Positions 7,459 through 37,733 of a DNA stretch of 64,000 bases are shown piece by piece. The notes beneath the pieces were generated by a model. It was not told where the DNA came from. It ran no database searches and saw only the letters and a program-made list of their open reading frames with translations. The DNA is taken from contig JBOEGF010000010.1 in NCBI GenBank assembly GCA_050633305.1, positions 576,001 to 640,000 on the forward strand, written 5' to 3'. The first letter of the stretch is position 1. Each line of letters begins with the position of its first letter. This stretch comes from Nannocystales bacterium. GTDB taxonomy: Bacteria; Myxococcota_A; Polyangia; Nannocystales; Nannocystaceae. Made by a program: the position numbers and the translations under genes.

Positions 7459-8478
7459 TCACGTCCGGGCGAAGTTCGCCACCATCCAATGCGGATACAG
7501 GTTCGGCGGTGCGGTGAGCTCGGCGAGGGCGTCGAGTTCATCTTGTGACCACTCAAGCTCCACCGCGCCGAGGTTGTCCTCGAGTTGCTCGACCCGTTTG
7601 GCGCCCACGAGCACCGAGGTGATGCCCCGCTGCTGCAATACCCATGAAAGGGCCAATCGCGGGATGGTGGAGTCCTTGGCCTTGGCGAGCTCGTCCAGCT
7701 TCTCGATCAAGTCGTAGCCTCTCTCCTTGTCCACGGGCGGGAAGTCGAACGTGGTCCGACGGGATCCTTCAGGGTCCTCTTGGCCACGACGATACTTGCC
7801 CGTGATGAAGCCACCGGCCAGCGGTGACCAGACCATGATGCCGAGGCCCTGGTCTTCGCACATCGGCACGAGGTCGAGTTCGAGCTCACGGCCCAGCAGC
7901 GAGTAGTAGGCCTGCAGGGACACGAAGCGGGTGCCGGCCGCGGCAAGGCTGTTTGCCTTGACCACTTGCCAGCTGGCGAGGTTGGAACACCCGATGTAGC
8001 GAACCTTGCCTTGTTGGACGAGGTCTTCGAGTGCCCGCATGGTCTCCTCCATCGGCGTGCGATCATCGGGACCGTGGATCTGGTAGAGGTCGATGTGGTC
8101 GGTACCGAGGCGGCGAAGACTCGCTTCGCAGCCGGCGATGATGTGCTTGCGAGACAGACCCACGTTGTTCATGTCGCCCGCTCCACCGCCGGCCGCGTCG
8201 CTCATCGGTCCGCGAACTTTCGTGGCGAGGACGACTGCGTCGCGGTCGATGCCGAGCTCCTTCAGCGCTCCGCCGAGGAGGGTCTCGGATTGGCCGTAGC
8301 TGTAGATGTCGGCGGTGTCGAAGAAGTTGATGCCCCCGTCGAGGGCTCGCTTCACCAGCGCTGTGGCGCCGTCCTGCTCGACTTGACCAATGCCATAGAA
8401 CCCCTGACCGAAGGTCATGCACCCAAGGCAGAGCTCTGAGACGCGTAGACCGGTGTTTCCCAAGAATCGATACTTCAT
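7459..8478 (-). CDS. Aldo/keto reductase
   Basis: MKYRFLGNTGLRVSELCLGCMTFG, FFDTADIYS.G.SE, LATK, IDLYQIH, GKVRYIGCSN, WSPLAGG. Confidence 0.95.
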   Translation of the reverse strand: MKYRFLGNTGLRVSELCLGCMTFGQGFYGIGQVEQDGATALVKRALDGGINFFDTADIYSYGQSETLLGGALKELGIDRDAVVLATKVRGPMSDAAGGGAGDMNNVGLSRKHIIAGCEASLRRLGTDHIDLYQIHGPDDRTPMEETMRALEDLVQQGKVRYIGCSNLASWQVVKANSLAAAGTRFVSLQAYYSLLGRELELDLVPMCEDQGLGIMVWSPLAGGFITGKYRRGQEDPEGSRRTTFDFPPVDKERGYDLIEKLDELAKAKDSTIPRLALSWVLQQRGITSVLVGAKRVEQLEDNLGAVELEWSQDELDALAELTAPPNLYPHWMVANFART

Positions 8479-12252: not shown

Positions 12253-12471
12253 ATGAGCAAGAAAAAGCTGAAAGAACTGTTCATTGAGGATCTCGGCGAA
12301 GTCACCGGTGGCAAGGGCGGCATCCACACAACGCTCGCTGTGGGCGAAGAAGGCCCCTACCCCACGACGCTCGCTGTCGGCGAAGAAGACATCCTGACCA
12401 CGATGGCACTTGGCGAAGAACACGCGACCACCCTCGCGCTTGGCGAAGAAGGCGACTTCCCCAGCCTGTAG
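12253..12471 (+). CDS. psnA: Plesiocin-type graspetide (omega-ester peptide) precursor
   Basis: Leader with LFIEDL motif and VTGG double-Gly site; four cores TTLAVGEE, TTLAVGEE, TTMALGEE, TTLALGEE. Confidence 0.95.
   Translation: MSKKKLKELFIEDLGEVTGGKGGIHTTLAVGEEGPYPTTLAVGEEDILTTMALGEEHATTLALGEEGDFPSL
12328..12450 (+). repeat. Four core-peptide repeats ending in ggcgaagaa
   Basis: 24-nt units separated by 6-12 nt spacers. Confidence 0.9.
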
Positions 12472-12556: not shown

Positions 12557-13453
12557 TCAGCTTCGCGGCATTGCGAAGCGAACCTCGGCGACCGTCCCGA
12601 CGCGTAGCAGGTCTCGTTGAGTGTCGTCGAGCTTCAGACGGGCCTCTGCAAAGATCAGTCGGGTCCCCGCGTCGATCTCCGGTGCGACGGTCGTGACCGC
12701 AGTTGTCATATCGACATCCTCCGCCACGAAGCGAACCGTGACGACGGCACCCAGGACGAGCCCTGCGCTGTGCGCTTCGGGTACGGCGAAACGTATCAAG
12801 CGAGTATCAGAGATGATCTGGACGACGGGTTCCCCCGTGCCCAGAGTCGCTCCAGGGTCAGCATATCGGCGCGCCACCGTTCCGCTGAACGGCGCGCGGA
12901 GCTCGGCTTCGGCGATCCTTGCAGAGGCCTCGTCCATCTTGCTGCGCTGCTGACGAAGCGAGGCTCCGGCGCTGCGTTTCCTTGCGCTGGCGAGCTTCTC
13001 AGCGAACTGTCTCTCCCGAACCTCAGCCTTGGAAATGAACTTCTGGATCTGCTCGACGTCGGAGCGCGACGCCTCGGCTTGCTCGAGTTCCAGCGCAAGA
13101 CGGTCGAGGCTGGCCTTCGAGGCCCTCCACGCCGCAGTGGCAGCGACCAGCTCGCTCTTGTCGCCTCGCACGTCCATCTGCGCGATGAGGTCACCTTCGG
13201 CGACATGATCGCCGACTTGCAGATCGAGCCGCTGAAGCTTTGCGAAGCCAGAGGCAACCAAGACGACCTCCAACTCGGGGACCAGGACGCCCACCATCGG
13301 GCCGGACTCGGTCGCTTGCTCAACGGACTTCGTCGCCTCCTCCTGTGCGCTGGTGTCCTCGACGACGGGCGAGGTCGCCGCGGGGCTGCAGGCCGCCAGG
13401 GACATGGCGACAACGAGGCCGCATCGCAAGCTGGAGCCCATCCCCGCAGTCAT
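12557..13453 (-). CDS. Efflux RND periplasmic adaptor (MFP) lipoprotein, copy 1
   Basis: SLAAC lipobox, VGDHVAEGDLIAQM, LRAPFSGTV, PEIDAGTR; ATG overlaps the ABC gene stop (ATGA). Confidence 0.88.
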   Translation of the reverse strand: MTAGMGSSLRCGLVVAMSLAACSPAATSPVVEDTSAQEEATKSVEQATESGPMVGVLVPELEVVLVASGFAKLQRLDLQVGDHVAEGDLIAQMDVRGDKSELVAATAAWRASKASLDRLALELEQAEASRSDVEQIQKFISKAEVRERQFAEKLASARKRSAGASLRQQRSKMDEASARIAEAELRAPFSGTVARRYADPGATLGTGEPVVQIISDTRLIRFAVPEAHSAGLVLGAVVTVRFVAEDVDMTTAVTTVAPEIDAGTRLIFAEARLKLDDTQRDLLRVGTVAEVRFAMPRS

Positions 13454-15654
13454 TGCGACTGCCTTTCGTACAGCTGGCGGTACACACTCGCTCCATCGAG
13501 CAGCTCGTGATGGGTCCCAGACTCGACGACCCGCCCCTTGTCCATCACGATGATCAGGTCGGCATCCACGACCGTGCTCAGCCTGTGGGCGATCACGATC
13601 CGCGTGCACTGCAGGCTTGCCAGTGAGCCTTGAATCGCGGCTTCCGTCACGCTGTCGAGGTTGCTCGTCGCTTCGTCGAGCAGAAGGATTGCGGGGTTGC
13701 CCGCGAGCGCACGTGCCAGGGCCAAGCGTTGTCGCTGTCCCCCGGAAAGGGATGCCGCTCCATCGGCGAGGATCGTCTCGTACCCCATCGGTAGAGCGTT
13801 GATCTCCTGATGGATGGCCGCCCGCATCGCCGCTTGGGCGACCTCGTCCATCGTCATCTCCGGGTTGCTCATCGCGATGTTGTCACGGACCGACATTCCG
13901 AAGAGTTCGCCCTGCTGTGTGACCACGCCCAGCTGCTCTCGCACGCTGCGAAGATCCAATGTGGACAGGTCGAGGCCGTCGTACATCACCCGGCCTTGCT
14001 GTGGTTGGTACAGACCGACCAGAAGCTTGGCCACCGTGCTCTTTCCCGCGCCCGAGGGCCCGACGATCGCGACGAACTGCCCGGGCTCGATCGTGACGGT
14101 GAGGTCTTGTACGGCGGGTGGTGTGGCCTCCGAGTAGCGGAACGTGGCTGCTACGGCTTGAATCTGCCCTGAGAGTCGCGGTGCGCGCTGGACCGCGCTC
14201 GCGTCCTGTTCAGGCTCCGTCTGCATCACGTCTTCAATGCGTTCGAGGTAGCTTCCGAGCACCTGGAACTGGAGGCTGACACCGACCATTGCGGATAGCG
14301 GGCCCAAGAAGCCTGCTCCCAGGGCTGAGAGTCCGAGCATAGCGCCCAGGGAAAGGGTGCCGTTGAGGACCAGGTTCGTGCCCACCGCGAGGATGACCAA
14401 CGGGGCCGCCATGCTGAAGGCGCCAAGCAACGAGGACACGAGCGCGTCGAGTTTTCCGCGACGCAACGAAACGTTGAGCGCATCGACGAAGAGGTTTGAC
14501 CACCGATCGACGGCCCGATACTCGGCGCCCATGGACTTGAGGCTCTCAATCCCTGTGAGCATCTCGACCTCGTAGCTGGACGTCTTGGCCTGCACGGCGA
14601 GGCTCTGTGTCATCAGATCTCGCTGCACGCGGCGCGTGGCCCAGTATAGCGACAGCTGGGCAGCGCCGAGAAGCAGGACGACCGCTCCCATCAACGGGCT
14701 CGCCCAGAAAATGAGCACCAGGTACAGGCTGACGAGCGACCCATCGAGCAACGCAGACATCGCACCTGAGGTGAGGATCTCCCGAACGGTCGCGTTGCTC
14801 CCCAGCCGCATGATCAGGTCGCCCGCAGAGCGGCGCTGGAAGAACGCGTAGGGAAGATCGATGAGGTGGTCGAGGAACCCAACCGTCATCTTCGCATCGA
14901 GCAACGTGCGCAGCTGCAGCAGCAGGTTGGCGCGGACGAGCGCGCTGATGAAGTTGAAGACCACCATCATGCTCAGGCCGGCCCCAAGCACGAGCAACAG
15001 GTCGACGTCGCGCCGTGGAATGATGCGATCGACCAGCAGAGTGGTCATCAGCGGCAGGCCCAGCGCGAGCAGCTGGACCAACACGGACATGACCAGCGAG
15101 CGGCTCCACAACTCGGGGTATGTGAGGACCTGTGCCATGTAGCGGCGGATCAGCGGGCGGCGACGAGATTCGGGCTCGAACGCCTCGCTGGGCTCCAGGA
15201 GGATGGCGACCCCCGTGAATGCTTCGTTGAACTCGGCCGCAGACACCCGTCGGCGTCCATGCGCGGGGTCCACGATGACGATCCCCCGCTTGTCGACCCG
15301 GTCGAAGACGACGAAGTGGTTGAACTCCCAATGGAGGATCGCGCCCGACGGGACAACATCGAGGTCTTCGACGTCTTCGACCTGAACGCCACGCCCGCGC
15401 AGGCCGTAGCTGCGGGAGGCGCGAATGATGCCCAGCGCGCTGACCCCGTTTTGGTCTGCACCCAGAGCGTCTCGTAGCTCGTCCAGGCCGGTCTCGTGGC
15501 CGTAGTAGCGCAGGACGATACTCAGACACGCAGCGCCGCAGTCCGCGGCCGTCATCTGCTGCACATGTTCCAGCTTGCGGCGGCGACCCAACATGCCCAG
15601 CCGCTGCAACGCCGGGAAACGACGCTTCAATGCGTGGTCGTGGTCGGTGCTCAT
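13450..15654 (-). CDS. C39 peptidase-containing ABC transporter, copy 1
   Basis: QQMTAADCGAACL, HWEFNHFVV, IVDPAHG; Walker A GPSGAGKST, LSGGQRQR, LLLDEATS, IAHRLST. Confidence 0.96.
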   Translation of the reverse strand: MSTDHDHALKRRFPALQRLGMLGRRRKLEHVQQMTAADCGAACLSIVLRYYGHETGLDELRDALGADQNGVSALGIIRASRSYGLRGRGVQVEDVEDLDVVPSGAILHWEFNHFVVFDRVDKRGIVIVDPAHGRRRVSAAEFNEAFTGVAILLEPSEAFEPESRRRPLIRRYMAQVLTYPELWSRSLVMSVLVQLLALGLPLMTTLLVDRIIPRRDVDLLLVLGAGLSMMVVFNFISALVRANLLLQLRTLLDAKMTVGFLDHLIDLPYAFFQRRSAGDLIMRLGSNATVREILTSGAMSALLDGSLVSLYLVLIFWASPLMGAVVLLLGAAQLSLYWATRRVQRDLMTQSLAVQAKTSSYEVEMLTGIESLKSMGAEYRAVDRWSNLFVDALNVSLRRGKLDALVSSLLGAFSMAAPLVILAVGTNLVLNGTLSLGAMLGLSALGAGFLGPLSAMVGVSLQFQVLGSYLERIEDVMQTEPEQDASAVQRAPRLSGQIQAVAATFRYSEATPPAVQDLTVTIEPGQFVAIVGPSGAGKSTVAKLLVGLYQPQQGRVMYDGLDLSTLDLRSVREQLGVVTQQGELFGMSVRDNIAMSNPEMTMDEVAQAAMRAAIHQEINALPMGYETILADGAASLSGGQRQRLALARALAGNPAILLLDEATSNLDSVTEAAIQGSLASLQCTRIVIAHRLSTVVDADLIIVMDKGRVVESGTHHELLDGASVYRQLYERQSQ

Positions 15655-16619
15655 AGCTCCTTGATGACGGGGACCAAGGTCTCCAAGAGGGTTTCGGATC
15701 GTAGCTTGGCCTCGAGTGTCCCCTGCATCCCATCGTAGACGCGATATTCGGTGCCGTCGGCCTCGAAGACGTCGGAGGGGAGCTCCGTTTCAACCACGAC
15801 CACCGGGCCATGCAGCTCCAACGCGCCTTCGCGGTCGCGACCGAGAAACCGCATCGCCTCGGCCGGGCCCACAACCTCGTCGGCTACAGAACGCACGAGG
15901 ACTTGTTGCCGGCTGTCGGAGAACCCCTCGAGTTCGAGATAGAACTGGGTGTCGGCGGCGCTGAGTAGAGGCCGGTAGTGCCCCGGGAACAAGGCCACGA
16001 TGACGGTGCTCGAGCTGTCTCGTTCGACCGAAACCACCGCATCGCCTGGGCCCACGGCTTGTCCGGGGTGGACTCTCACGTCCGAGACGACTCCGGGTTG
16101 CGGGGCGAGGATGGAACGCTCTTTGAGCCGAGCCTGTGCACGCTGAAGTTCGGCATCCAGCGCCGCCAAGCGCTCGCGGCGAACGTCCGCTTCGGGGAAA
16201 CGCAGGACCTCGACCAGACGCTGGTGGTGTTCGCGCCGAACTCGCTCAAGCTCCGCCCGTTGGGCCGCGTCATCGAGGCGAACGAGGACTTGTCCGGCCA
16301 CGACGCGCTGACCGTGTTCAACCTCGATGGTCTGTACAGTCCCGACGACCGCGGAGGTCGCGGCTTCGCGGCCGTCGCGTCGCAAGATGGCGACGCCCTG
16401 AGCGTACTCACCAACCCGGGCCGTCGCCGCGAACAGCATCGCCGCGAACGCGACCACCACCGTGACCACGACCGCCCACCGAGTCCATGTGGACACGATG
16501 TGCAGCGGTCGGCCCGGGCGAGCACCCATGCGGTGCGCCTTGAGGGCCTCCTCGCGGAACTGGATCCTGCGGGCCTGGGTCGGCCCGCTGGGTTGCTGCT
16601 GCTTGCTCGGCTCGCTCAC
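15651..16619 (-). CDS. HlyD-family secretion adaptor, copy 1
   Basis: N-terminal FREEAL motif, one TM, lipoyl-like halves (VEHGQRVVAGQVL, APQPGVV), GMQG near the C-terminus. Confidence 0.88.
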   Translation of the reverse strand: MSEPSKQQQPSGPTQARRIQFREEALKAHRMGARPGRPLHIVSTWTRWAVVVTVVVAFAAMLFAATARVGEYAQGVAILRRDGREAATSAVVGTVQTIEVEHGQRVVAGQVLVRLDDAAQRAELERVRREHHQRLVEVLRFPEADVRRERLAALDAELQRAQARLKERSILAPQPGVVSDVRVHPGQAVGPGDAVVSVERDSSSTVIVALFPGHYRPLLSAADTQFYLELEGFSDSRQQVLVRSVADEVVGPAEAMRFLGRDREGALELHGPVVVVETELPSDVFEADGTEYRVYDGMQGTLEAKLRSETLLETLVPVIKEL

Positions 16620-16646
16620 ACGGTCCCCTGCGTGGAATCTCCGCAG

Positions 16647-17588
16647 CTAGACTTTGCCCACGGCGTGGGAGGAGAGCGCATCGCACAAGGGACCGGTGAT
16701 GTCGACCCCGGCGCGGGCTTCGAATCCCAGGAACATGGGAGAGGGGTTCAACTCGAGGATCCGATAGCGGCCCTCGCGGTCGGCCTTGATGTCCATGCCC
16801 GTGAAGCGAAGGCCCAGGGTCGCCGTGGCGCGTCGGCACTGCGCCGCCACTTCGTCGCTGAGCTGGATCGCCTCGATCTTCTGCTCGTTTTGGCGGAAGT
16901 CGATCTCGTCGGTCACGATTCGCAGCGCGCAGATGACTTGGCCGTCGATGATGTACACGCGCACATCCTCGCCGGGGAGCAACTCCTGGAAGCACACCGG
17001 GGCGGACTCGAGCCGAGCGAGGCGTTCGTCGGTGAGGTGCTCGGGCTCGACCTTGCGCGTGGCCGCACCTCCGGTCACAGGCTTGTAGATCGCCTCGTGC
17101 TCGGCGCAGAAGCGCCGGACCGCAGCGGGGTCGTTGCTCCAAAGGGTAGCCGGAACGGGTAGCTCCGCCGCGTGCAGCAACGCCAGCTGGTACGGCTTCG
17201 TGATGTTGATGCTCGTCGAAGACGGGTTGTACAGAGCTGAACCTGCCAGCTCCCATCGGAGCAACATCGCGGCAAGCGGAGTGGAGCGCTCCCGGAAGGC
17301 AAGCATCGTGCGCCGCCAGTTCTCCTGCATCGCCTCGTCGGCTTCGACGCCGAAGCCGGCAGGGCTCTGATACAGACTGCGTACGTAGACAGCCGCGGGG
17401 CGGCCCAACGCTTGGCCGTCGAGCTCGACCGCCTCGTTGGCCTCGCCGAGCGATAGGGTCATTTCCTCGGGAAAACGCTGTGCATCGAGCACGAGCGGGT
17501 CAAGCCCGCGCTTTTGCAGTTCGTCGTGGACGGCACGCGCGTGCGCATCTTCGAGGGACCCGGCAATGACGATTGGGGGGGACGCCAC
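16647..17588 (-). CDS. psnB: Graspetide ATP-grasp macrocyclase (PsnB-like)
   Basis: KPYQL, P.TLWSND, IYKPVTGG, PVCFQELLPG.DVRV, DFR motif, GMDIK, ILELNPSP; linked to a TTxxxxEE precursor; start placed at GTG 17588. Confidence 0.92.
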   Translation of the reverse strand: MASPPIVIAGSLEDAHARAVHDELQKRGLDPLVLDAQRFPEEMTLSLGEANEAVELDGQALGRPAAVYVRSLYQSPAGFGVEADEAMQENWRRTMLAFRERSTPLAAMLLRWELAGSALYNPSSTSINITKPYQLALLHAAELPVPATLWSNDPAAVRRFCAEHEAIYKPVTGGAATRKVEPEHLTDERLARLESAPVCFQELLPGEDVRVYIIDGQVICALRIVTDEIDFRQNEQKIEAIQLSDEVAAQCRRATATLGLRFTGMDIKADREGRYRILELNPSPMFLGFEARAGVDITGPLCDALSSHAVGKV

Positions 17589-17771
17589 GGCGGCACCGTA
17601 CCACCGGGAGCGAACGGCCCACGGGACTGCGACGAATCGGGATACCTGGCACACCCATCGCGAACCCGGGCCGAGTCACCCGGCGACAGAATGGGATGAC
17701 CCGAGGAAACGCAAAACGCGCCATCTCCCCACCACCCCATCCCGTCCCGCACGGCAGCCCCCGGATGCGCG

Positions 17772-23880: not shown

Positions 23881-24981
23881 CTACCAGACCAAGTCGGGCA
23901 TGAAATCCTCATGGACGAGTGTCAACACGCGGTGGGCCCCGCTACCGGGCCGTAGGTGCTTGGCAAGGTCGCAGGCGAGCTGGGGCAGGGCCGCTCGGAG
24001 GCTTTGGGCCCGTGTGCGGCAGTTGTCCTGCTCTTGGGTCGTGAGGGCGTCGGTACGGAGCAGTGCCTGGTGTAGCTGGATCACGCAGCGGTAGATCACC
24101 AGCGCCTGGAGCATCGTCACCAGGGGTCGCATCTGGCCGGAAATGGGGGAGCGCAGGCTCGGTCCCCACCGCGGTAGGCCACACGGCGGGCAGAGTTCCC
24201 ACCAGAGCCACATGCGCTGGTGCAGATACTCGTGCAACAGCCCCTCGCACAAGGCAGGCACTCCAACGGAGAAGGGATTGACGAAGACCGCTCCGGGCAG
24301 GCGTAGGCGCAGGTTGAAACTCCAGTGCGCTTGGGGCAGAGGCTGCCCTTGTTCGTGGGGAACGGGGGGCAGCAGTGCGGTTGTGGTGATGGTGCGCTCA
24401 AAGTCGGCGAACACCACCTGGTCGACTCGGGACAGCAGAGCCCGTGCTCGCTCGTATTGCCGCAGGGCGTGCGCCGAGCAACCCGGCTTGGCCGACATTG
24501 CGTACACCGGAGGAAACGGAAGGTCTGCGAACAGCCCGGGGATGGGGAAATACACAACGTGTCCCCCGGCGGACCTGCGATGGGCATCGAGGGCGATGAC
24601 CTCCCCGCCGCGGCGCTCGACCACACCGTGGCCCAGGTGGGGCAGGCGGTAGATTCCGCTCTCAATGCCCGGGCCACTGGGGGATACGCCTCCGCTCAGC
24701 ACGTCGAGTCGATGCAGCAGTTGAGTTGCCGTATCCAGGTCGGGGCACCGATCGCCCAGACAGACGAGGGGCGCATGGATTTCGGGGGAGTTCCCCAACG
24801 CCCGACTCAGGTCCCCAAGGCGTGCCTCGAGCGCGTCGAGCTGCGTGTCCAGGGCCCGCAGGGAGGCGTTCTTACGGCGACTGTTGCGAAGCAACCGCCG
24901 CGGCAGGCTCGAGCGGGCCTGTAGCTGCTGCTCGGCGTTGATCGGGGCCAGGACATCGATCAAGGATTGGACGCGGAACAC
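23881..24981 (-). CDS. HExxH-motif peptide-modifying protein (aKG-HExxH dioxygenase-like)
   Basis: PGAVFV...LCEGLLHEYLHQRM...LRSPISGQMRPLVTMLQA resembles the HExxH...SPWR.D.RPL..LL(H/Q) pattern; GGAGGT RBS 7 nt before GTG 24981. Confidence 0.75.
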   Translation of the reverse strand: MFRVQSLIDVLAPINAEQQLQARSSLPRRLLRNSRRKNASLRALDTQLDALEARLGDLSRALGNSPEIHAPLVCLGDRCPDLDTATQLLHRLDVLSGGVSPSGPGIESGIYRLPHLGHGVVERRGGEVIALDAHRRSAGGHVVYFPIPGLFADLPFPPVYAMSAKPGCSAHALRQYERARALLSRVDQVVFADFERTITTTALLPPVPHEQGQPLPQAHWSFNLRLRLPGAVFVNPFSVGVPALCEGLLHEYLHQRMWLWWELCPPCGLPRWGPSLRSPISGQMRPLVTMLQALVIYRCVIQLHQALLRTDALTTQEQDNCRTRAQSLRAALPQLACDLAKHLRPGSGAHRVLTLVHEDFMPDLVW

Positions 24982-27632
24982 GTCGCCGACCTCCAGGCGG
25001 TGGTTCGGCCGGCCTCCTGGGGGACGTGGCGCCATCTCTCCAGAAGGTTGCGGGCGAACAGGAGCGCCCAGGCTTCCTCGGCGCGGTTGTGACGGAAGTG
25101 CAACCGTGTGCCGGTCATGTGGACGACCGATCTCAGGTGCTTGCACAAGCGAAGGCGATTGTCCTGCCCAAGCCACGCGCTCAGGTGGTGGGCGCGTTGT
25201 ACGAGCGCAGCGTGCATGGTCTCGTCACCGTCTCCAACTGCCGTGCTCACCAAGGCCCGACGGCGAGCTCTCCACATGTTTCCGACCGCGCGGCGGTCAT
25301 CGGTCGAGTAGCCGAACTCCGCGCAAAATGAGTCGAAAGCACGGCGGCAGAAGGCGTGCTGCGCATCGGGGGAGAGTCCCGCGTAGTCCAAGGTCTGAAG
25401 GATCGCAAGCGCGTACAAGTTGGTGCGCCGGTCGTCCATCAGCGGAAGGCCACTGCAAGCGTCGTAGAGGCTGGCCGAGTCCGCGACGAACAGCGCCTCG
25501 ACCGCCTCGATGTCCGCGGCACCGCCGTAGCGGTCCCACTCACGCACGTAGGGTTCGACCGCAAAGTGCCGAACGATTCGTTGGTCGAGCATGACGTCGA
25601 GCCGCTCCATGAGAGCGTGCATGACCGCGGGCTGCCCCGCAGGGATGCGTAGGCGTAGCTCGCTCTCGACCTCATCGGAGAGGAACACGTAGAAGAACTG
25701 GACCTCGCCGAGGCTCTCGCGAAGCTCGCGAAGGACTGTGGGCATGCGCTCCGACAGCGCGCTTACTCGAAGGGTTCGGTACGGGCCGAGCAGGGCACCG
25801 GGGGCAGGACGAGGAACTTTGGGGACCCGCAGCCGCTTGGCCACGGACCCGAACGTGACGGGGAGCAGGGCGTGGGCAGCGTGGCCCCGACCGTCAATGA
25901 CAAGGTCTACGGAGGGCAGCCGCTCGGAGACCGCGAGGCGCTGCTGCCGACGAAGCCGCTTGAAGAGGTCTCGTCGTGCCGCGCAGTCGACAGCGGGGTC
26001 AAGGGGCAGCGCGCCACTGCTCGAGTCTACGGTGACCTCGCAGTCGGCCAACCCGACCCGTTCCAGCCATGTCGGCAGCGTGTCTTCGGTGAGCTCCGCT
26101 GGTACGGGGGCCCGACGTCGACACAACACGTGCCCACCGTAGGTGATACGTGGCCGAACCGGGAGTCCCTTGAACGCTACGTCGAGAAGACTGCGACCCG
26201 GGCGTTCTGCGGTTGCAGCTCGAGACAGAAGACGAACCAGTGGGTGCAGTGCCCGGTTGGAGTCGTCGTACGGCACTGGCCGCACGATCCTCAGCTGGCG
26301 TTGCTCCTCACGGGTGCGCACCAGCAGCCTATCCCCGGTCGCGCTGACTTCGAGGTCCTCGAGACGAAGGGTCCGTTGTGAGTCGCTGGCTCGGCCGCAG
26401 TATTCCAGCGCGAGAACCCCTGGGACACGGACGTCTGCGATCTTGTCGAGTACGCCCGGACCTCGGTACGCGAGCATGACCGTCTCGGTCCCTTCCTCGT
26501 CCAACCCTGGCAGGCGCTCCGCGAGCCCCGGCAAGTCGTAGCGGCCGATCAGCTCCCGCGGGTGGGCGGAGAACAAGGCCGGGCCCACCAGGCGACCGTC
26601 GGCACTCCATCGAGTGCCGAGCAACATGACGCCCGACCACGACGATGCGGGCAAGGGGGCGTCGGTGAGGTCGATGGACGACTCGAACGCACGAGCTCGC
26701 AGCCAACGCACGAATGGCTCGTCTGCAGCGGCGACCTCGAACTCGGGGTTGTCCGCTCGCTCCAGCAGACCTTCAGCCATCCGCTCGAGTTCAGGCATGG
26801 GGAGCCACCGCCCGTCGAGGCGCTTGTCGAGCAGGCGCTGGAGGACTGGGGGCTCGGACCGTGTGCACCGCAGCAGCACCTCCGCTACCTCCTGCACATC
26901 AGCGAGGGCTGCGGGCATGCGTACCGGCCGGGCGAAGGTGGCGAACGCGTTGGTCGGCGTCTCGGTTGCATCTTGACGGGCGGTGACCTCTGCGACGGCC
27001 TCGCCGAGCGACTCTACGTTCGGCCTGGCCTCGTCGTTCCACAGTGAGCATGCACCTGGGGGCTCGAGGACCCCCATGTCGAGAAGTCGGTCGAGTAGAG
27101 CGCGAACACGATCAGCTGGAATCCCTTCTGTTTGCAGGCAAGTTTCCCACTCGATGCGAGTCCCGCCGCGCTGGCGCAGCAATGCCTCGCGAAGGCCCTT
27201 CGGTAGGCCCAGCCGTTTGGCATGGAACACGTCCGCGGCGACGTCGCGTTGGTAGACGGTGACGGCATCCGCGTGGAACACCGCGCTGGTGGAGACCGCC
27301 AGGGTTTCGGGATGCTTGCCGGGCAGCCGGGCCCCGAGCGGGTGACTGCGCTGCACTCGAACGTCGCTCAGCGACGGTTCGCCTCCGGCGGGTGTCGCGA
27401 TCGCGGCCGCGGCGAACAGGCTGCGAGGGATCGAGCGTGAGCGGGCACGGGCTTCGTACAGCGCCCGAACTGCCGGAAGCTCGCCGCGCTGGATCTGGGC
27501 GGGAAGGTCAGGGTTGGACGACGCGACCGCAATCGCCGCGAGGAACCGTTGTCGTTCGTCCTCGGGCGCGCCATCCCACGAGAAGTCGCTCGGGAACAGG
27601 GACGTTCGCAATACACACCAGTCGACGCTCAT
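24960..27632 (-). CDS. lanB: LanB-like lanthipeptide dehydratase with C-terminal elimination domain (divergent, about 890 aa)
   Basis: LRTSLFP, FLAAIAVASS, YEARARSRSIPRSLFA, IGRY, LEDLEV, PRITYG; ELRLRI, YVREWDRYGG, EALFVADS, SVVHMTGTRL; ATG overlaps the lanC stop. Confidence 0.8.
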   Translation of the reverse strand: MSVDWCVLRTSLFPSDFSWDGAPEDERQRFLAAIAVASSNPDLPAQIQRGELPAVRALYEARARSRSIPRSLFAAAAIATPAGGEPSLSDVRVQRSHPLGARLPGKHPETLAVSTSAVFHADAVTVYQRDVAADVFHAKRLGLPKGLREALLRQRGGTRIEWETCLQTEGIPADRVRALLDRLLDMGVLEPPGACSLWNDEARPNVESLGEAVAEVTARQDATETPTNAFATFARPVRMPAALADVQEVAEVLLRCTRSEPPVLQRLLDKRLDGRWLPMPELERMAEGLLERADNPEFEVAAADEPFVRWLRARAFESSIDLTDAPLPASSWSGVMLLGTRWSADGRLVGPALFSAHPRELIGRYDLPGLAERLPGLDEEGTETVMLAYRGPGVLDKIADVRVPGVLALEYCGRASDSQRTLRLEDLEVSATGDRLLVRTREEQRQLRIVRPVPYDDSNRALHPLVRLLSRAATAERPGRSLLDVAFKGLPVRPRITYGGHVLCRRRAPVPAELTEDTLPTWLERVGLADCEVTVDSSSGALPLDPAVDCAARRDLFKRLRRQQRLAVSERLPSVDLVIDGRGHAAHALLPVTFGSVAKRLRVPKVPRPAPGALLGPYRTLRVSALSERMPTVLRELRESLGEVQFFYVFLSDEVESELRLRIPAGQPAVMHALMERLDVMLDQRIVRHFAVEPYVREWDRYGGAADIEAVEALFVADSASLYDACSGLPLMDDRRTNLYALAILQTLDYAGLSPDAQHAFCRRAFDSFCAEFGYSTDDRRAVGNMWRARRRALVSTAVGDGDETMHAALVQRAHHLSAWLGQDNRLRLCKHLRSVVHMTGTRLHFRHNRAEEAWALLFARNLLERWRHVPQEAGRTTAWRSATCSASNP

Positions 27633-28961: not shown

Positions 28962-29229
28962 CGTTGGATCTTCGCTTTCGTCGTTGTTGCTTTCGTTCGG
29001 AACGAACCCCGGGATTTCCCGGATTCATTGAGCCCTCTGCACCGAGAGCCCGGGTTCTGACGCGGACAACGGTGTTTTTTTGGATGGCGACCAGTCCCAG
29101 CCCAGTCGCGTGATCGAGGCTCTGCGCGATTGGGCCCTGGCATCGAGGCTCGGTGTGCCCCGAACCTGCAGAGACGATTCGTCGTCCGCTGGGGCAACTC
29201 CTCGGTCCCTCGATGCTACCGTTCGAGGT

Positions 29230-30411
29230 GTGAGCGACATCAGGACCTCGGCTTTCCTCGCGCATGCCTTGGTCGGGCTGATGCTGTGCGGCTGCGGCAA
29301 CGACACGGGTGCAGACGATTCCGGGCCCGGGTCCAGCTCGACGAGTGATCTGTCGGCGGGTCCGACGAGCGAGCCGGAGTCCAGTTCGACGACGCAAGAC
29401 ACGGGTCCGAGTCCCCAATCGACGACGGGTACAACCGGTGGGGGGACCGCCACGTCCGATCCCGACACGGGGAGTTCATCCGAGTCCGGGGACACCGGTG
29501 GACTCGTCGACGACGGCCCCGTGGGCTGGGCTAGCGTCGCCGGCCGGGGCGTTCGGACCACCACCGGCGGCGCCGCGGGGCGCACGGTCACGGTCACGAC
29601 GCTCGACGAACTCGAGATGTACGCGGGGGCCGAAGAGCCCTACGTCATCCAGCTCTCCGGGACGATCACCGGATCGGTTCGTGTTCGCTCGAACAAGACC
29701 CTCGAAGGCCTGCCGGGGGCCGAGCTTGTGGGTGGGCTCGCGATCATCGGGGAAGACGACGGCTTCGTCTCCAACATCATCGTCCGGGACCTGACCGTCC
29801 GCATGGACAACTGCCCCGGCGACGGGTGCAGCTCGGATGATGCCGTCACGGTCTATCGAGCGCATCACATCTGGGTCGACCATTGCGACATCAGCGATGG
29901 CGACGATGGAAACCTCGACATCACCGCGGAGTCCGACTTCGTCACGGTCTCGTGGTGTCGCTTCTCATACAGCAACGACTCCGGAGGCCACCGTTTCTCC
30001 AACCTGATCGGTGCCTCGGACGGCGCGACCGAAGACCAAGACGACCTCGCGGTCACGCTGCACCACAACTGGTGGACGGCCAATGTCTCCGAGCGCATGC
30101 CTCGGGTGCGCTTTGGCCCGGTACACGTGTTTAACAACTACTACACGCCAACCGACGCCCTGTACTGCATGCGGGCGGGCTTCGAAGCAGACCTTCGCAT
30201 CGAGAACAACTACTTCGAAGGGGTGAGCAACCCGTTCGACGCTGGCAACACGGCTCCCTCGGCGCAAGTCTTGGCGACCGGCAATGAGTTCAGCCCGATG
30301 CCGATTCCCGAGCCCGACCAGGGCGACGTCTTCGACCCGCCCTACGCGTATTCGCTGGACGCCGCCTCGGACGTTCCTGCTGTGGTCATGGCCGGCGTTG
30401 GGCCGCGATAG
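29230..30411 (+). CDS. Pectate lyase family 1 lipoprotein
   Basis: MLCGC lipobox; TTGGAAG, SNKTLEG, NIIVRDL, IWVDHC, VTLHHNW, RMPRVRFG.VHVFNNYY. Confidence 0.92.
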   Translation: MSDIRTSAFLAHALVGLMLCGCGNDTGADDSGPGSSSTSDLSAGPTSEPESSSTTQDTGPSPQSTTGTTGGGTATSDPDTGSSSESGDTGGLVDDGPVGWASVAGRGVRTTTGGAAGRTVTVTTLDELEMYAGAEEPYVIQLSGTITGSVRVRSNKTLEGLPGAELVGGLAIIGEDDGFVSNIIVRDLTVRMDNCPGDGCSSDDAVTVYRAHHIWVDHCDISDGDDGNLDITAESDFVTVSWCRFSYSNDSGGHRFSNLIGASDGATEDQDDLAVTLHHNWWTANVSERMPRVRFGPVHVFNNYYTPTDALYCMRAGFEADLRIENNYFEGVSNPFDAGNTAPSAQVLATGNEFSPMPIPEPDQGDVFDPPYAYSLDAASDVPAVVMAGVGPR

Positions 30412-35526: not shown

Positions 35527-36501
35527 TCACCCCGCCGGGGGCGAGAAACACTGGATCGAGGTCTCGATGCGAAAGTGTGAGCCGTCATGGCGACGTTCGG
35601 CGTGGAAGATGTCCATCGCGTAGGTCTCTCCATCGGTGAGCCCCAACGTGTCCAGATCGATGCTGCCCGTCAGCTCGCCATGCAGACCGCCCAAGTCGAT
35701 CACCCGTGCCCCATCGACGAAGACCCAAAGGTCGTCGTCGCCGACGAAGGTAAAGACTTGGCCGGGCTCGTACACGAACGTGGTGTGGATCTCAGTTGTG
35801 AAGTGGAAGTTGTGTTGGTCACCCAATGCGTCGGGGAACGTCTCGTTGTTCGGTCCCGGTGCGCCATTCCAACCGGCGTCATCCAGAGGGAAGAAGGTGT
35901 CGTCATCGAAGACGAAGAGACCCGAGCCCGGCGCGGTCTCGACCAACTCGATGTCGAGCGCCGCGGTCACGTTGACGTCGGCCAGGTCGGCGTACCACTG
36001 CGCGAAGGTGTCGATGGAGGTGATCTGGGTCGGAGAGCTCCCCGCCGGGGGGGCCGGCGCGGCGGCGTTGTAGACCGGGAGGTCATCGGCGCCCAGGGTC
36101 GACTCGACGAGGTCGAGGCTTGGCTGTCCGCCCCAAAACGACTCAAAATCCGGATGAGTGCTCGCGAAGTCCCGCACGGTGGCGGTGAGTGTGACGGTGC
36201 CGTCGTTGCATGCCTCGGGGCCGACCGAGCCCACGTCCGAGATGGTACCGACGTCGAAGCTGACCGGACTGTCCGCGGTCGTGTCGCTGCCCGAGGGAAG
36301 GGCGGAGGTCGAGGTGGCGATGCCTGTCTCGGTACCCGAAGGGGCCGCGCTGCCAGAGGAGGACGACACGGTGGACGCGTCCGCCCCGCCCGTGCTCGAC
36401 ACAGAGGTCGTGGTGGGGAGGGAGTCAGGGCTGTCGGAGTCGGGGGCATCGCATGCGGCCGTCAGTGTGGCCACGAGGCACAGGATGGATGCGCGGTTCA
36501 T
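35527..36501 (-). CDS. Fibro-slime (PA14-like) domain lipoprotein
   Basis: LTAAC lipobox; VRDF...HPDFE, FAQWY, FFPLD, HNFHFTTE, GDDDLWVF, DLGGLH, IFHAERR..GS.FRIETS. Confidence 0.9.
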   Translation of the reverse strand: MNRASILCLVATLTAACDAPDSDSPDSLPTTTSVSSTGGADASTVSSSSGSAAPSGTETGIATSTSALPSGSDTTADSPVSFDVGTISDVGSVGPEACNDGTVTLTATVRDFASTHPDFESFWGGQPSLDLVESTLGADDLPVYNAAAPAPPAGSSPTQITSIDTFAQWYADLADVNVTAALDIELVETAPGSGLFVFDDDTFFPLDDAGWNGAPGPNNETFPDALGDQHNFHFTTEIHTTFVYEPGQVFTFVGDDDLWVFVDGARVIDLGGLHGELTGSIDLDTLGLTDGETYAMDIFHAERRHDGSHFRIETSIQCFSPPAG

Positions 36502-37733
36502 GGCTGTGACTCCTCGTAGATGATGACAGCGCTCGAGACCTGCACCTCGGGTGGGGTGTGGTTGCCGCCGTCATACTCACAGCCGGTCCCCAACGCGCAG
36601 CCCATGCAGACCGGAGCATCGGGGCGACACGTGTTCTCGTAGCCGGTCACGTCGTAGACGACCTCGACTGAGGTCCCGGCCGTTGCGTGCGCGGTGATGT
36701 CCTCGACCCACGGCTGCACCATGTCCCCGGGACACCAGCCGGCTCTGGGTAGGGTCCAGGTGCCCTGCTGGCCTGACACCGGGTTTTGGTCGCAGTCGTC
36801 GCGCCAGATCGTGCGTTGGACCGGCGCGTCGGCGATGAGGAAGCCGTGGGCGAGTTGGCAGAACTCGGCACAGTTGTCGAGGTTGCCCTGGCCGTGCCCG
36901 GTGATGACGCTCCACAGCTCCACCTTTGCGGCTTCAGGCGGCACTTCGAGCGGTGCGGCAGCGAGCTGATCGGGGAGTGGGTTGAGGGGATCGCCGAGGG
37001 TCAGTTGCTGGCGAGGCCATAATGGGATGACTCGGGTCGGAACGAGGTCGGGAACCCCTCCGGTGTATTCGAGCTGCGCGTCCACGATCCATCCGTCTCC
37101 GTTGGCGTGACCTGGGCCGACCCACGTGTCGATGTAGAGCCGAAGGGTCTGCTGCCCGGTGAGCAACGTCTGCAACGCGGTCACATCCAGCGTCCAGGTT
37201 CCGCCCACGCGGTAGGGGGTGACGAAGCGGGCGAGCTCCCAAACCGGCGGCTCCTCTCGGCCGGGTTCGGCGACCAGGCCAATGCTGCCCTTGCGATCCC
37301 ACCAGTCGCAGAGGCCGTCGGGACAGCTCAGTCGGAGCGTGAGGGTGACCGACTCATACGTGAAGCCGGGCTCGGGCAGCTCCACCTCGAAGTCCAGCTC
37401 GCGTTGGTTTTGTCCCTCGTCCCAACCGAGCCAGAAGATATGCGCGCCCTCGAAGACTGGGATCAGGGCATTCTCGCCGGGGAGGAATGCCGGCCCTTCG
37501 CCCGTGCTGTCGGCGGATGTAGTCCCCTCGGATCCCTCGGAGGACGAGGACATACCTGTCGAGCTCGAGGCAGTCGGCATGTCGACGCCCGTGGACGCAG
37601 CGCTGGTGCCTGCTTCGGGTCCCGTGGATGTCCCTGCAGGGCCATCGGCCCCGGAGCCGCCGCACCCGACCAGCATCGCCATCGAGGCGATTGCGACCCT
37701 GAGTGACCGTTTTGCGCGCACTTCAACCCTCAC
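36498..37733 (-). CDS. Peptide-N-glycosidase F-related lipoprotein
   Basis: LVGC lipobox; CDWWDR, ELARFVTPY, ITGHG, CAEFC, WRDDC, GTW..PRAGWCPG. Confidence 0.85.
   Translation of the reverse strand: MRVEVRAKRSLRVAIASMAMLVGCGGSGADGPAGTSTGPEAGTSAASTGVDMPTASSSTGMSSSSEGSEGTTSADSTGEGPAFLPGENALIPVFEGAHIFWLGWDEGQNQRELDFEVELPEPGFTYESVTLTLRLSCPDGLCDWWDRKGSIGLVAEPGREEPPVWELARFVTPYRVGGTWTLDVTALQTLLTGQQTLRLYIDTWVGPGHANGDGWIVDAQLEYTGGVPDLVPTRVIPLWPRQQLTLGDPLNPLPDQLAAAPLEVPPEAAKVELWSVITGHGQGNLDNCAEFCQLAHGFLIADAPVQRTIWRDDCDQNPVSGQQGTWTLPRAGWCPGDMVQPWVEDITAHATAGTSVEVVYDVTGYENTCRPDAPVCMGCALGTGCEYDGGNHTPPEVQVSSAVIIYEESQP

Follow-up and report, generated by a model that had tools for sequence, protein, structure and literature searches.

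The locus described here raises the question of whether a class I lanthipeptide dehydratase (LanB) may still be active when parts of its signature motifs have been replaced. The window, i.e., the whole stretch of 64,000 nucleotides from a Nannocystales bacterium that was analysed (GenBank assembly GCA_050633305.1, contig JBOEGF010000010.1, positions 576,001 to 640,000), encodes such a protein, a divergent LanB of 890 amino acids (aa). The first-pass annotation of this DNA had described a LanB with substituted catalytic motifs and had suggested altered chemistry (different aminoacyl-tRNA use, a scaffold role or partial activity) rather than simple decay. We consider it probable that the protein is an active Glu-tRNA class I dehydratase from a small myxobacterial lineage that diverged long ago. 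The analysis shows a conserved sequence, a LanB fold, a shared gene order and purifying selection, from which we infer every chemical step.

The divergent LanB is encoded by an intact gene within an operon

The LanB frame starts with an ATG that overlaps the lanC stop codon and runs without internal stop codons, in agreement with the earlier description of an intact, translationally coupled gene. The described substitutions were also present in the open reading frame (ORF): residues 59-73 (glutamylation motif) read YEARARSRSIPRSLF and residues 646-662 (elimination motif) read FFYVFLSD..SELRLR, with RYGG (residues 701-704) and the C-terminal His of SVVHM (H838) kept. The gene is part of an operon on one strand, which encodes, in this order, a precursor peptide, LanC, LanB, an HExxH protein, an HlyD-type adaptor, a C39 ATP-binding cassette (ABC) exporter and a second adaptor. 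Start and stop codons overlap from lanC through the HExxH gene, and again from the HlyD gene through the second adaptor gene. The HExxH gene begins with a GTG at position 24981, within the last LanB codons, and GGAGG is found 8 nt upstream. At the related loci L001 and L002 (see below) the LanB stop codon overlaps the HExxH start; the junction in the window reads on, which leaves LanB a few residues longer and gives a 22-base overlap with the GTG gene. The scan for promoters and terminators in this region yielded chance-level matches only.

When the single LanB protein was used as the query, Pfam recognised the C-terminal domain only (PF14028, E = 4e-28), and the genome-level search added a 104-position piece of PF04738. 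The gene was the only match to PF04738 or PF14028 in its genome, the assembly of which is 92% complete, and it lies beside the sole LanC match. Complementation by a second LanB was rejected, as none was found in this assembly. Two tRNA-Glu(TTC) genes were present in the genome.

The comparison with ordinary LanBs by hhalign gave a probability of 100 over 853 columns. The AlphaFold model (predicted local distance difference test, pLDDT, 93; predicted template modelling score, pTM, 0.89) displayed the full two-domain LanB fold, in which a single chain carries both the glutamylation and the elimination domain, as in a full-length class I LanB. NisB, MadB and MibB were matched end to end by the model. 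The best structural matches were NisB (Z 22.2, root-mean-square deviation (rmsd) 6.2 Å, 785 aligned residues, the alignment spanning residues 1-868) and MadB (Z 21.1, rmsd 5.8 Å, 822 aligned). The alignment to NisB and the structural modelling, both proposed as checks in the first-pass annotation, thus revealed a two-domain LanB fold with the catalytic NisB equivalents kept.

The protein belongs to a separate clade under purifying selection

The protein search returned ten relatives out of 8000 scored candidates, and a profile search of 1.84 billion representatives returned four at E ≤ 1e-30, two of them new; in the latter search the score then fell from 916 bits to 97, the level at which ordinary LanBs set in. 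The resulting alignment comprised 14 full-length sequences sharing 31-72% identity, i.e., the window LanB and 13 relatives, including the one from genome locus L003 (31%). The comparison set of 118 ordinary LanBs was taken from 146 other listed proteins, of which 28 under 900 aa were dropped; the set was picked by likeness to the clade and is not a random sample. All 14 sequences formed a single clade with a support of 100 and a stem of 1.44 (FastTree, 70 rows), in a tree with long branches that does not place the origin of the clade. The total tree length of the clade was 10.05 substitutions/site, and 96 of 890 columns were invariant across it. All nine columns that are invariant in the 118 ordinary LanBs were retained, and PF14028 was recognised in every clade member.

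All 14 frames are open and encode 873-932 aa. The ratios of nonsynonymous to synonymous substitutions (dN/dS, Nei-Gojobori) for the three pairs of genes for which DNA was available were 0.27, 0.29 and 0.43 (0.19-0.44 for residues 1-135), which are rough values, since dS was near saturation. Because 13 of 13 relatives share the pattern, dN/dS lies at 0.27-0.43 and several replacements evolve slowly (see below), the protein is not the product of simple decay, as had been supposed from the window alone; the close relatives, the inspection of which had been suggested, carry the substitutions as well and are not canonical. The protein had also been regarded as shorter than typical. The clade is indeed shorter than the median ordinary LanB (1031 aa, range 916-1109, n = 118), but shortness alone is not special, because 12 of the 118 are under 950 aa and the LanB clusters of the Atlas include representatives of 843 and 876 aa. 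The net charge of the clade was no different from that of ordinary LanBs.

The relatives with names belong to Nannocystaceae, Myxococcota and Polyangiaceae. Their distribution is patchy: a clade LanB was found in 3 of 72 genomes of the order and in none of six same-genus genomes. The two other positive genomes of the order sample may equal L001 and L002 and were not counted separately. In a stricter first look, at least one of 401 genomes of the phylum and at least one of 251 around the L003 genome were positive. The search of genome contigs with the single LanB protein gave no relative; with the alignment it gave 13 loci, corresponding to three full-length clade members and ten short matches to ordinary elimination domains. 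Metagenome contigs yielded three short matches and nothing longer, viral contigs yielded none by protein and none by precursor pattern, and plasmid records yielded one 36% match. The gene order LanA-LanC-LanB is common to the window, L002 and L003, and three loci (the window, L001 and L002) have the HExxH gene after LanB. At L003, a C39 exporter is encoded on the opposite strand. The L001 contig starts 779 bases ahead of the gene, so that a precursor could not show there.

The residues with proven catalytic roles in NisB are retained

In the elimination half, R660, R662, E698, R701 and H838 (NisB R784, R786, E823, R826 and H961) were invariant in all 14 sequences, together with Y695, Y702 (NisB Y827) and R843 (NisB R966). 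The NisB variants R786A, R826A and H961A stall at the glutamylated peptide (PMC4979651); H961A gave no dehydration and R775A a wild-type pattern in vivo (PMC4341554). The replacements within the elimination motif affect R775 (F650), Y776 (L651) and H782 (E658), the last of which is His in 114/118 ordinary LanBs versus 0/14 clade members, and T842 replaces the Asn preceding NisB R966. The site keeps the Arg pair, the Arg and the His that are given for NisB in PMC9011353. According to the same paper, syn-type lyases are without the His base and have Lys in place of a Tyr, which is probably Y776. No Lys was found at residues 650-651, and the clade has Leu, Val or Met at the position.

The NisB numbering used throughout was taken from alignments to the PDB chain and from profile-profile alignment. 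R9, Y59, R62, R66 and R364 (NisB R14, Y80, R83, R87 and R464) were invariant in the clade, and the motif additionally keeps P69 and F73 (NisB P90 and F94). In NisB, Y80F led to no dehydration, R83A to almost none and T89A to one fewer (PMC4341554). In one of the peptide aminoacyl-tRNA ligases (PEARLs), activity requires a Tyr and an Arg that are spaced by three residues and were placed at the CCA end of the tRNA by modelling (PMC11962472), and by analogy this pair would equal NisB Y80 and R83. The earlier claim of substituted catalytic residues did not hold, as the residues with proven roles in NisB (R786, R826, H961, Y80, R83, R87 and R14) are invariant in 14/14; because these residues are kept, the label of substituted catalytic motifs overstates the change.

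The window LanB has Ile, Arg and Ser in place of T89, F91 and G92, respectively. The T89 position is Thr in 114/118 ordinary LanBs versus 3/14 clade members (Val 5, Ile 3, Thr 3, Ala 1, Ser 1 and Glu 1), and F91 is Phe or Tyr in 117/118 versus 0/14. The T89 position is relaxed, because its site rate of 0.86 is close to the clade median of 0.76; S539 (NisB D648) and F650 are likewise relaxed. By contrast with this median, R70 (F91), T232 (near D299), A508 (W616), H587 and T842 evolve at rates of 0.18-0.27 and therefore look like fixed replacements. T89, D121, D299, W616 and D648 are lost in the clade. No conserved Asp was found at the D121 or D299 positions, and the helix after D121 is deleted. 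The conserved D122 of the HAD motif might have represented D121 in a shifted register, but this was rejected because its aligned position is in the hairpin that follows the conserved Asn strand. The NisB variants D121A, D299A and D648A showed slightly fewer dehydrations in vivo (PMC4341554).

TbtB numbering was derived from the alignment assuming a three-residue tag offset, which puts R743 and F783 on the correct letters. In TbtB, E851, R743 and F783 are named as residues of the pocket holding the glutamyl-adenosine mimic (bioRxiv 10.1101/2024.03.12.584671). H587 maps to E851, a position at which NisB has Asp, not Glu; R505 (TbtB R743) is retained in 12/14, and F783 is not retained in the clade and varies in ordinary LanBs too. 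Six other residues are newly invariant in the clade (C412, H463, H501, R506, D580 and H584). In a count over 12 positions, the clade misses 10-12 and ordinary LanBs 0-6, a descriptive figure only, since the positions were picked after the losses had been seen. The concern that the first-pass annotation raised about the elimination site is thus largely unfounded, and the glutamylation half is more altered than had been described there. Seven short (939-966 aa) ordinary LanBs (P0025, P0037, P0107, P0128, P0138, P0141 and P0146) are gapped in the columns of D121 and D299 and have Gln or His where the pocket Glu would be; they may represent another lineage in which the donor pocket was remodelled, or merely reflect an artefact of the alignment.

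The cyclase and the precursor peptides suggest rings of reverse direction

Stronger oddities than those of the LanB motifs adjoin the gene, namely a LanC with three Cys and a precursor with Cys before Ser/Thr. LanC has the acid His157 and the zinc ligands Cys218, Cys262 and Cys263 (CCG type, the third ligand being Cys, not His), in line with the LanC mechanism of an acid His and zinc ligands (PMC9934072). The His, the Cys and CCG were retained in 12/12 aligned homologs; the 13th match, a 219-aa fragment, was left out. The model of the window LanC adopts the LanC fold (Z 24.4, rmsd 3.6 Å over 319 residues versus LanCL1; Z 21.9 for MadC and 21.6 for NisC). In one survey, the combination of LanB with a three-Cys cyclase (B-CCC) accounted for two predicted peptides versus 194 for B-CCH (PMC11251773).

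The window precursor consists of a 30-aa double-Gly leader and a 38-aa core with two Cys, two Ser and six Thr, and it contains the conserved motif C-K-x-x-[DE]-x-[ST]-C-T-D-x-T-x-P-x-G-D-W; tblastn found no second copy in the genome. The compared precursors (window, L002, L003 and P0161, the last as a protein sequence) all have a GG leader, a type of leader that has been described for certain class I systems (bioRxiv 10.1101/2020.03.13.990614). Ser/Thr occurred at +6 and +11 from the Cys of C-K-[PA] in 4/4 precursors, and a second Cys at +7 with Thr at +8 in 3/4. The L003 precursor (8133-8327), the most distant, has four Cys and has C-K-P-G-D in common with the window peptide, the LanBs being only 31% identical. 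Because the conserved Ser/Thr sit after the Cys, and because the L002 core has no Ser/Thr ahead of its first Cys, a conserved thioether would have to join Cys to a residue downstream of it. The usual direction of ring closure by LanCs is C-to-N, and three-Cys cyclases of the ProcM clade work in both directions (PMC13060382). The precursor sequences would therefore imply reverse-direction rings, unusual for class I; the exact Cys-Ser/Thr pairing is a guess.

The HExxH protein matched TIGR04267 with an E value of 7.8e-7 and 29.3 bits, under the 40-bit cut-off, and the ChlH structure with an E value of 0.51. The HExxH motif was present in the proteins of 3/3 clusters (alignment of three). The downstream His of ChlH, which we take to be an iron ligand, is His in L001 and Gln in the window and L002 proteins (L002 12622-13743). 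Reactions of the family include the hydroxylation of Asp, His, Pro, Phe or Gln and the cleavage of the backbone (PMC12636437, PMC13060819). In L002 only, a cytochrome P450 gene (13847-15268) directly follows the HExxH gene and may encode an extra tailoring enzyme. The HExxH profile had no match in the L003 genome, which has LanA, LanC and a clade LanB, and the oxygenase is therefore not required.

Proposed pathway and alternative explanations

According to the reading of an active Glu-tRNA dehydratase, the RiPP (a peptide made on the ribosome and modified after translation) recognition element (RRE)-like unit of LanB would bind the double-Gly leader, and the site formed by Y59, R62, R66 and R364 would bind the CCA end of Glu-tRNA and move glutamate onto core Ser/Thr. 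R660 and R662 would clamp the glutamate side chain, R701 would activate, and H838 would deprotonate, giving dehydroalanine or dehydrobutyrine by a NisB-type route. The three-Cys LanC would then add Cys to a dehydro residue on its C-terminal side, the simplest pairing being Cys(0)-Ser/Thr(+6) and Cys(+7)-Thr(+11). Where present, the HExxH enzyme may hydroxylate a residue of the core (for example Asp, His or Pro), and the C39 exporter would cut after GG and secrete the product. The substitutions would represent second-shell remodelling for another substrate geometry and tRNA contact.

Several observations count against this reading. T89, D121, D299 and W616 are all lost together; the first three are among six residues listed as essential for glutamylation, mutation of which abolishes dehydration (PMC7296275, PMC12241602), and W616A lowers dehydration by NisB (PMC4341554). 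Because T89, D121 and D299 are not retained, we file the protein as a variant lineage rather than a canonical LanB. D121 and D299 align with low posterior (0.10 and 0.08), so that their mapping depends on the lack of any conserved acid in these stretches. The pocket Glu (Glu 107, Gln 10 and His 1 in the 118 ordinary LanBs) is His in 13/14 clade members. Of 47 columns conserved in at least 90% of ordinary LanBs, 29 are kept, two partly kept and 16 lost, and PF04738 was recognised in only 6/14 members (E 0.01). The alignment behind the structural model included 56 ordinary LanBs, which biases the model to the LanB fold, only four precursors were available, and a Cys-Cys disulfide might form instead of a thioether.

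A dehydratase that uses another aminoacyl-tRNA or another acyl donor seems unlikely; Asp would be the likeliest choice, because the carboxylate clamp remains. We retain this alternative because the clade has lost three of the six listed residues (T89, D121 and D299) as well as the pocket Glu. Most changes are concentrated in the donor half, where the Glu gave way to the slowly evolving H587, T89 is relaxed, no acid is conserved at D121 and D299, and the new invariant His, Cys and Arg residues are found; PEARLs use the scaffold with many amino acids and keep the CCA-binding Tyr and Arg (PMC11962472). However, the side-chain-reading residues R660, R662, R701 and H838 are unchanged in the clade, the pocket position varies elsewhere, with Asp in NisB and His in one ordinary LanB, and class I LanBs analysed so far all act via glutamylation, according to PMC12241602. 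We give a similarly low probability to a system that would combine the first LanB lineage to activate Ser/Thr with a donor other than Glu-tRNA (e.g., Asp-tRNA) in a His-lined pocket, a three-Cys LanC closing N-to-C rings and an HExxH enzyme with Gln in the metal site.

Partial or redirected activity, whether slow or site-restricted, leaving the ester in place or with changed elimination geometry, is also improbable. T89A, W616A, D121A and D299A each reduce dehydration by NisB (PMC4341554), and these losses coincide here; furthermore, the Tyr swapped in syn-type lyases is Leu, and the cores have just two to three conserved Ser/Thr. Nevertheless, the equivalents of His961 and Arg826 are kept and the Tyr is not replaced by Lys, and an enzyme of low processivity would differ only in degree from the active Glu-tRNA enzyme of the main reading.

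The suggested scaffold role, in which a dead LanB would bind the leader for LanC or the HExxH enzyme and the Michael acceptor would be oxidative or absent, appears very unlikely, because the catalytic residues are invariant, R775A is harmless and T89A is mild. The heavy loss of conserved residues would fit such a role, as would the atypical LanC and HExxH proteins, the LanC model being as near to the intermolecular LanCL as to MadC and NisC. Against it, the catalytic residues of both domains stayed invariant over 10 substitutions/site, the L003 genome manages without an HExxH match, and no other LanB-type gene was found in the 92% complete assembly of the window. A decaying copy of an ordinary LanB can practically be dismissed: the short length, the stop a few codons beyond the L001/L002 position and the absence from the same-genus genomes would suit it, but the frames of all 14 members are open with common substitutions, constrained dN/dS and full clade support, and the gene order is kept in four loci.

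Features of the locus and neighbouring genes

The coordinates of the operon and of the LanB sites are collected in Table 1.

Table 1. Genes of the operon and sites of the divergent LanB, in window coordinates
Feature	Position	Strand	Remark
Precursor peptide LanA, 68 aa	28755..28961	-	similar peptides directly before lanC in L002 and L003
LanC cyclase, 353 aa	27629..28690	-	PF05147; aligned to MadC and NisC
Divergent full-length LanB, 890 aa	24960..27632	-	glutamylation domain ~1-595, elimination domain ~615-870
RRE-like 3-strand/3-helix unit in LanB			residues ~117-186
LanB glutamylation motif, residues 59-73	27414..27458	-	alignment
LanB R364 (NisB R464)	26541..26543	-	invariant in 14/14 clade members and 118/118 ordinary LanBs
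LanB donor-pocket region (R505, A508, H587)	25872..26120	-	alignment
LanB elimination motif, residues 646-662	25647..25697	-	alignment
Remaining elimination site (E698, R701, Y702, H838, T842, R843)	25104..25541	-	alignment
Putative alpha-ketoglutarate HExxH oxygenase, 366 aa (HEYLH)	23881..24981	-	TIGR04267, match below cut-off
HlyD-type adaptor, 311 aa	22852..23787	-	
C39 peptidase ABC exporter (LanT), 734 aa	20651..22855	-	
Second membrane-fusion protein, 297 aa	19761..20654	-	

Just upstream of the precursor gene, on the opposite strand, lies a gene for a pectate lyase-domain protein (29080-30411, +), and further up one for a PNGase F-like protein (36498-37733, -). An ORF with a poly(ADP-ribose) polymerase (PARP) catalytic domain (40912-41931, -) matched PF00644 above the cut-off (E = 2e-8). 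A second RiPP cluster is located 3 kb away (12253-12471, +, with 12557-17654, -). It comprises a precursor of 72 aa, which has a GG leader and contains the repeat TTxxxxEE four times, an ATP-grasp ligase (TIGR04187-like) and its own HlyD protein, C39 exporter and adaptor; we take it to resemble a plesiocin-type graspetide cluster.

Relation to known systems and significance

The protein has the two-domain fold over approximately 800 residues in common with NisB, MadB and MibB, as well as the equivalents of Y80, R83, R87, R464, R784, R786, R826 and H961 and an operon with LanA, LanC and an exporter. It differs from them in its 12-18% structural identity, in being 100-220 residues shorter via 13 small deletions, in the loss of T89, F91, G92, D121, D299, W616, D648, R775, Y776 and H782, and in the double-Gly leader and the three-Cys LanC. 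TbtB and the PEARLs share the N-terminal scaffold (TbtB Z 20.6, rmsd 4.6 Å, 534 aligned) and the Arg-rich x-R-R-R at TbtB R743, a stretch whose middle residue is mostly Ala in ordinary full-length LanBs. Unlike these proteins, the divergent LanB has a fused elimination domain, does not keep TbtB F783 and E851, and reads H587-x-L589 at the E-x-R ATP-site motif of the PEARLs, which sets it apart from PEARL ligases. The syn-type glutamyl lyases (SptBb, CoiSA) resemble it in the divergent elimination motif near the NisB Tyr position, whereas the clade keeps the His and has no Lys, and it is not assigned to these lyases. The CCG zinc triad and the predicted rings, in which Cys would precede the dehydro residue, are shared with the ProcM clade and B-CCC systems; ProcM, however, is a fused class II enzyme. 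No paper on the clade or on a LanB-LanC-HExxH cluster was found in the full texts that were searched, which is weak evidence, as subscription papers were largely outside reach; the one lanthipeptide paper mentioning HExxH concerns a different enzyme, CoiH (bioRxiv 10.64898/2026.08.26.747419).

Judged by sequence, we regard the clade as a real, conserved variant lineage of the class I lanthipeptide machinery. Genome-mining rules that demand PF04738 can miss such clusters, because this profile misses 8 of the 14 members. The lineage constitutes a natural experiment on the LanB residues needed for glutamyl transfer, the published NisB data being in disagreement on T89, D121 and D299. If the predicted rings form, it would also provide an example of reverse-direction cyclisation in class I, by a cyclase whose zinc site resembles that of ProcM, which would be useful for peptide engineering.

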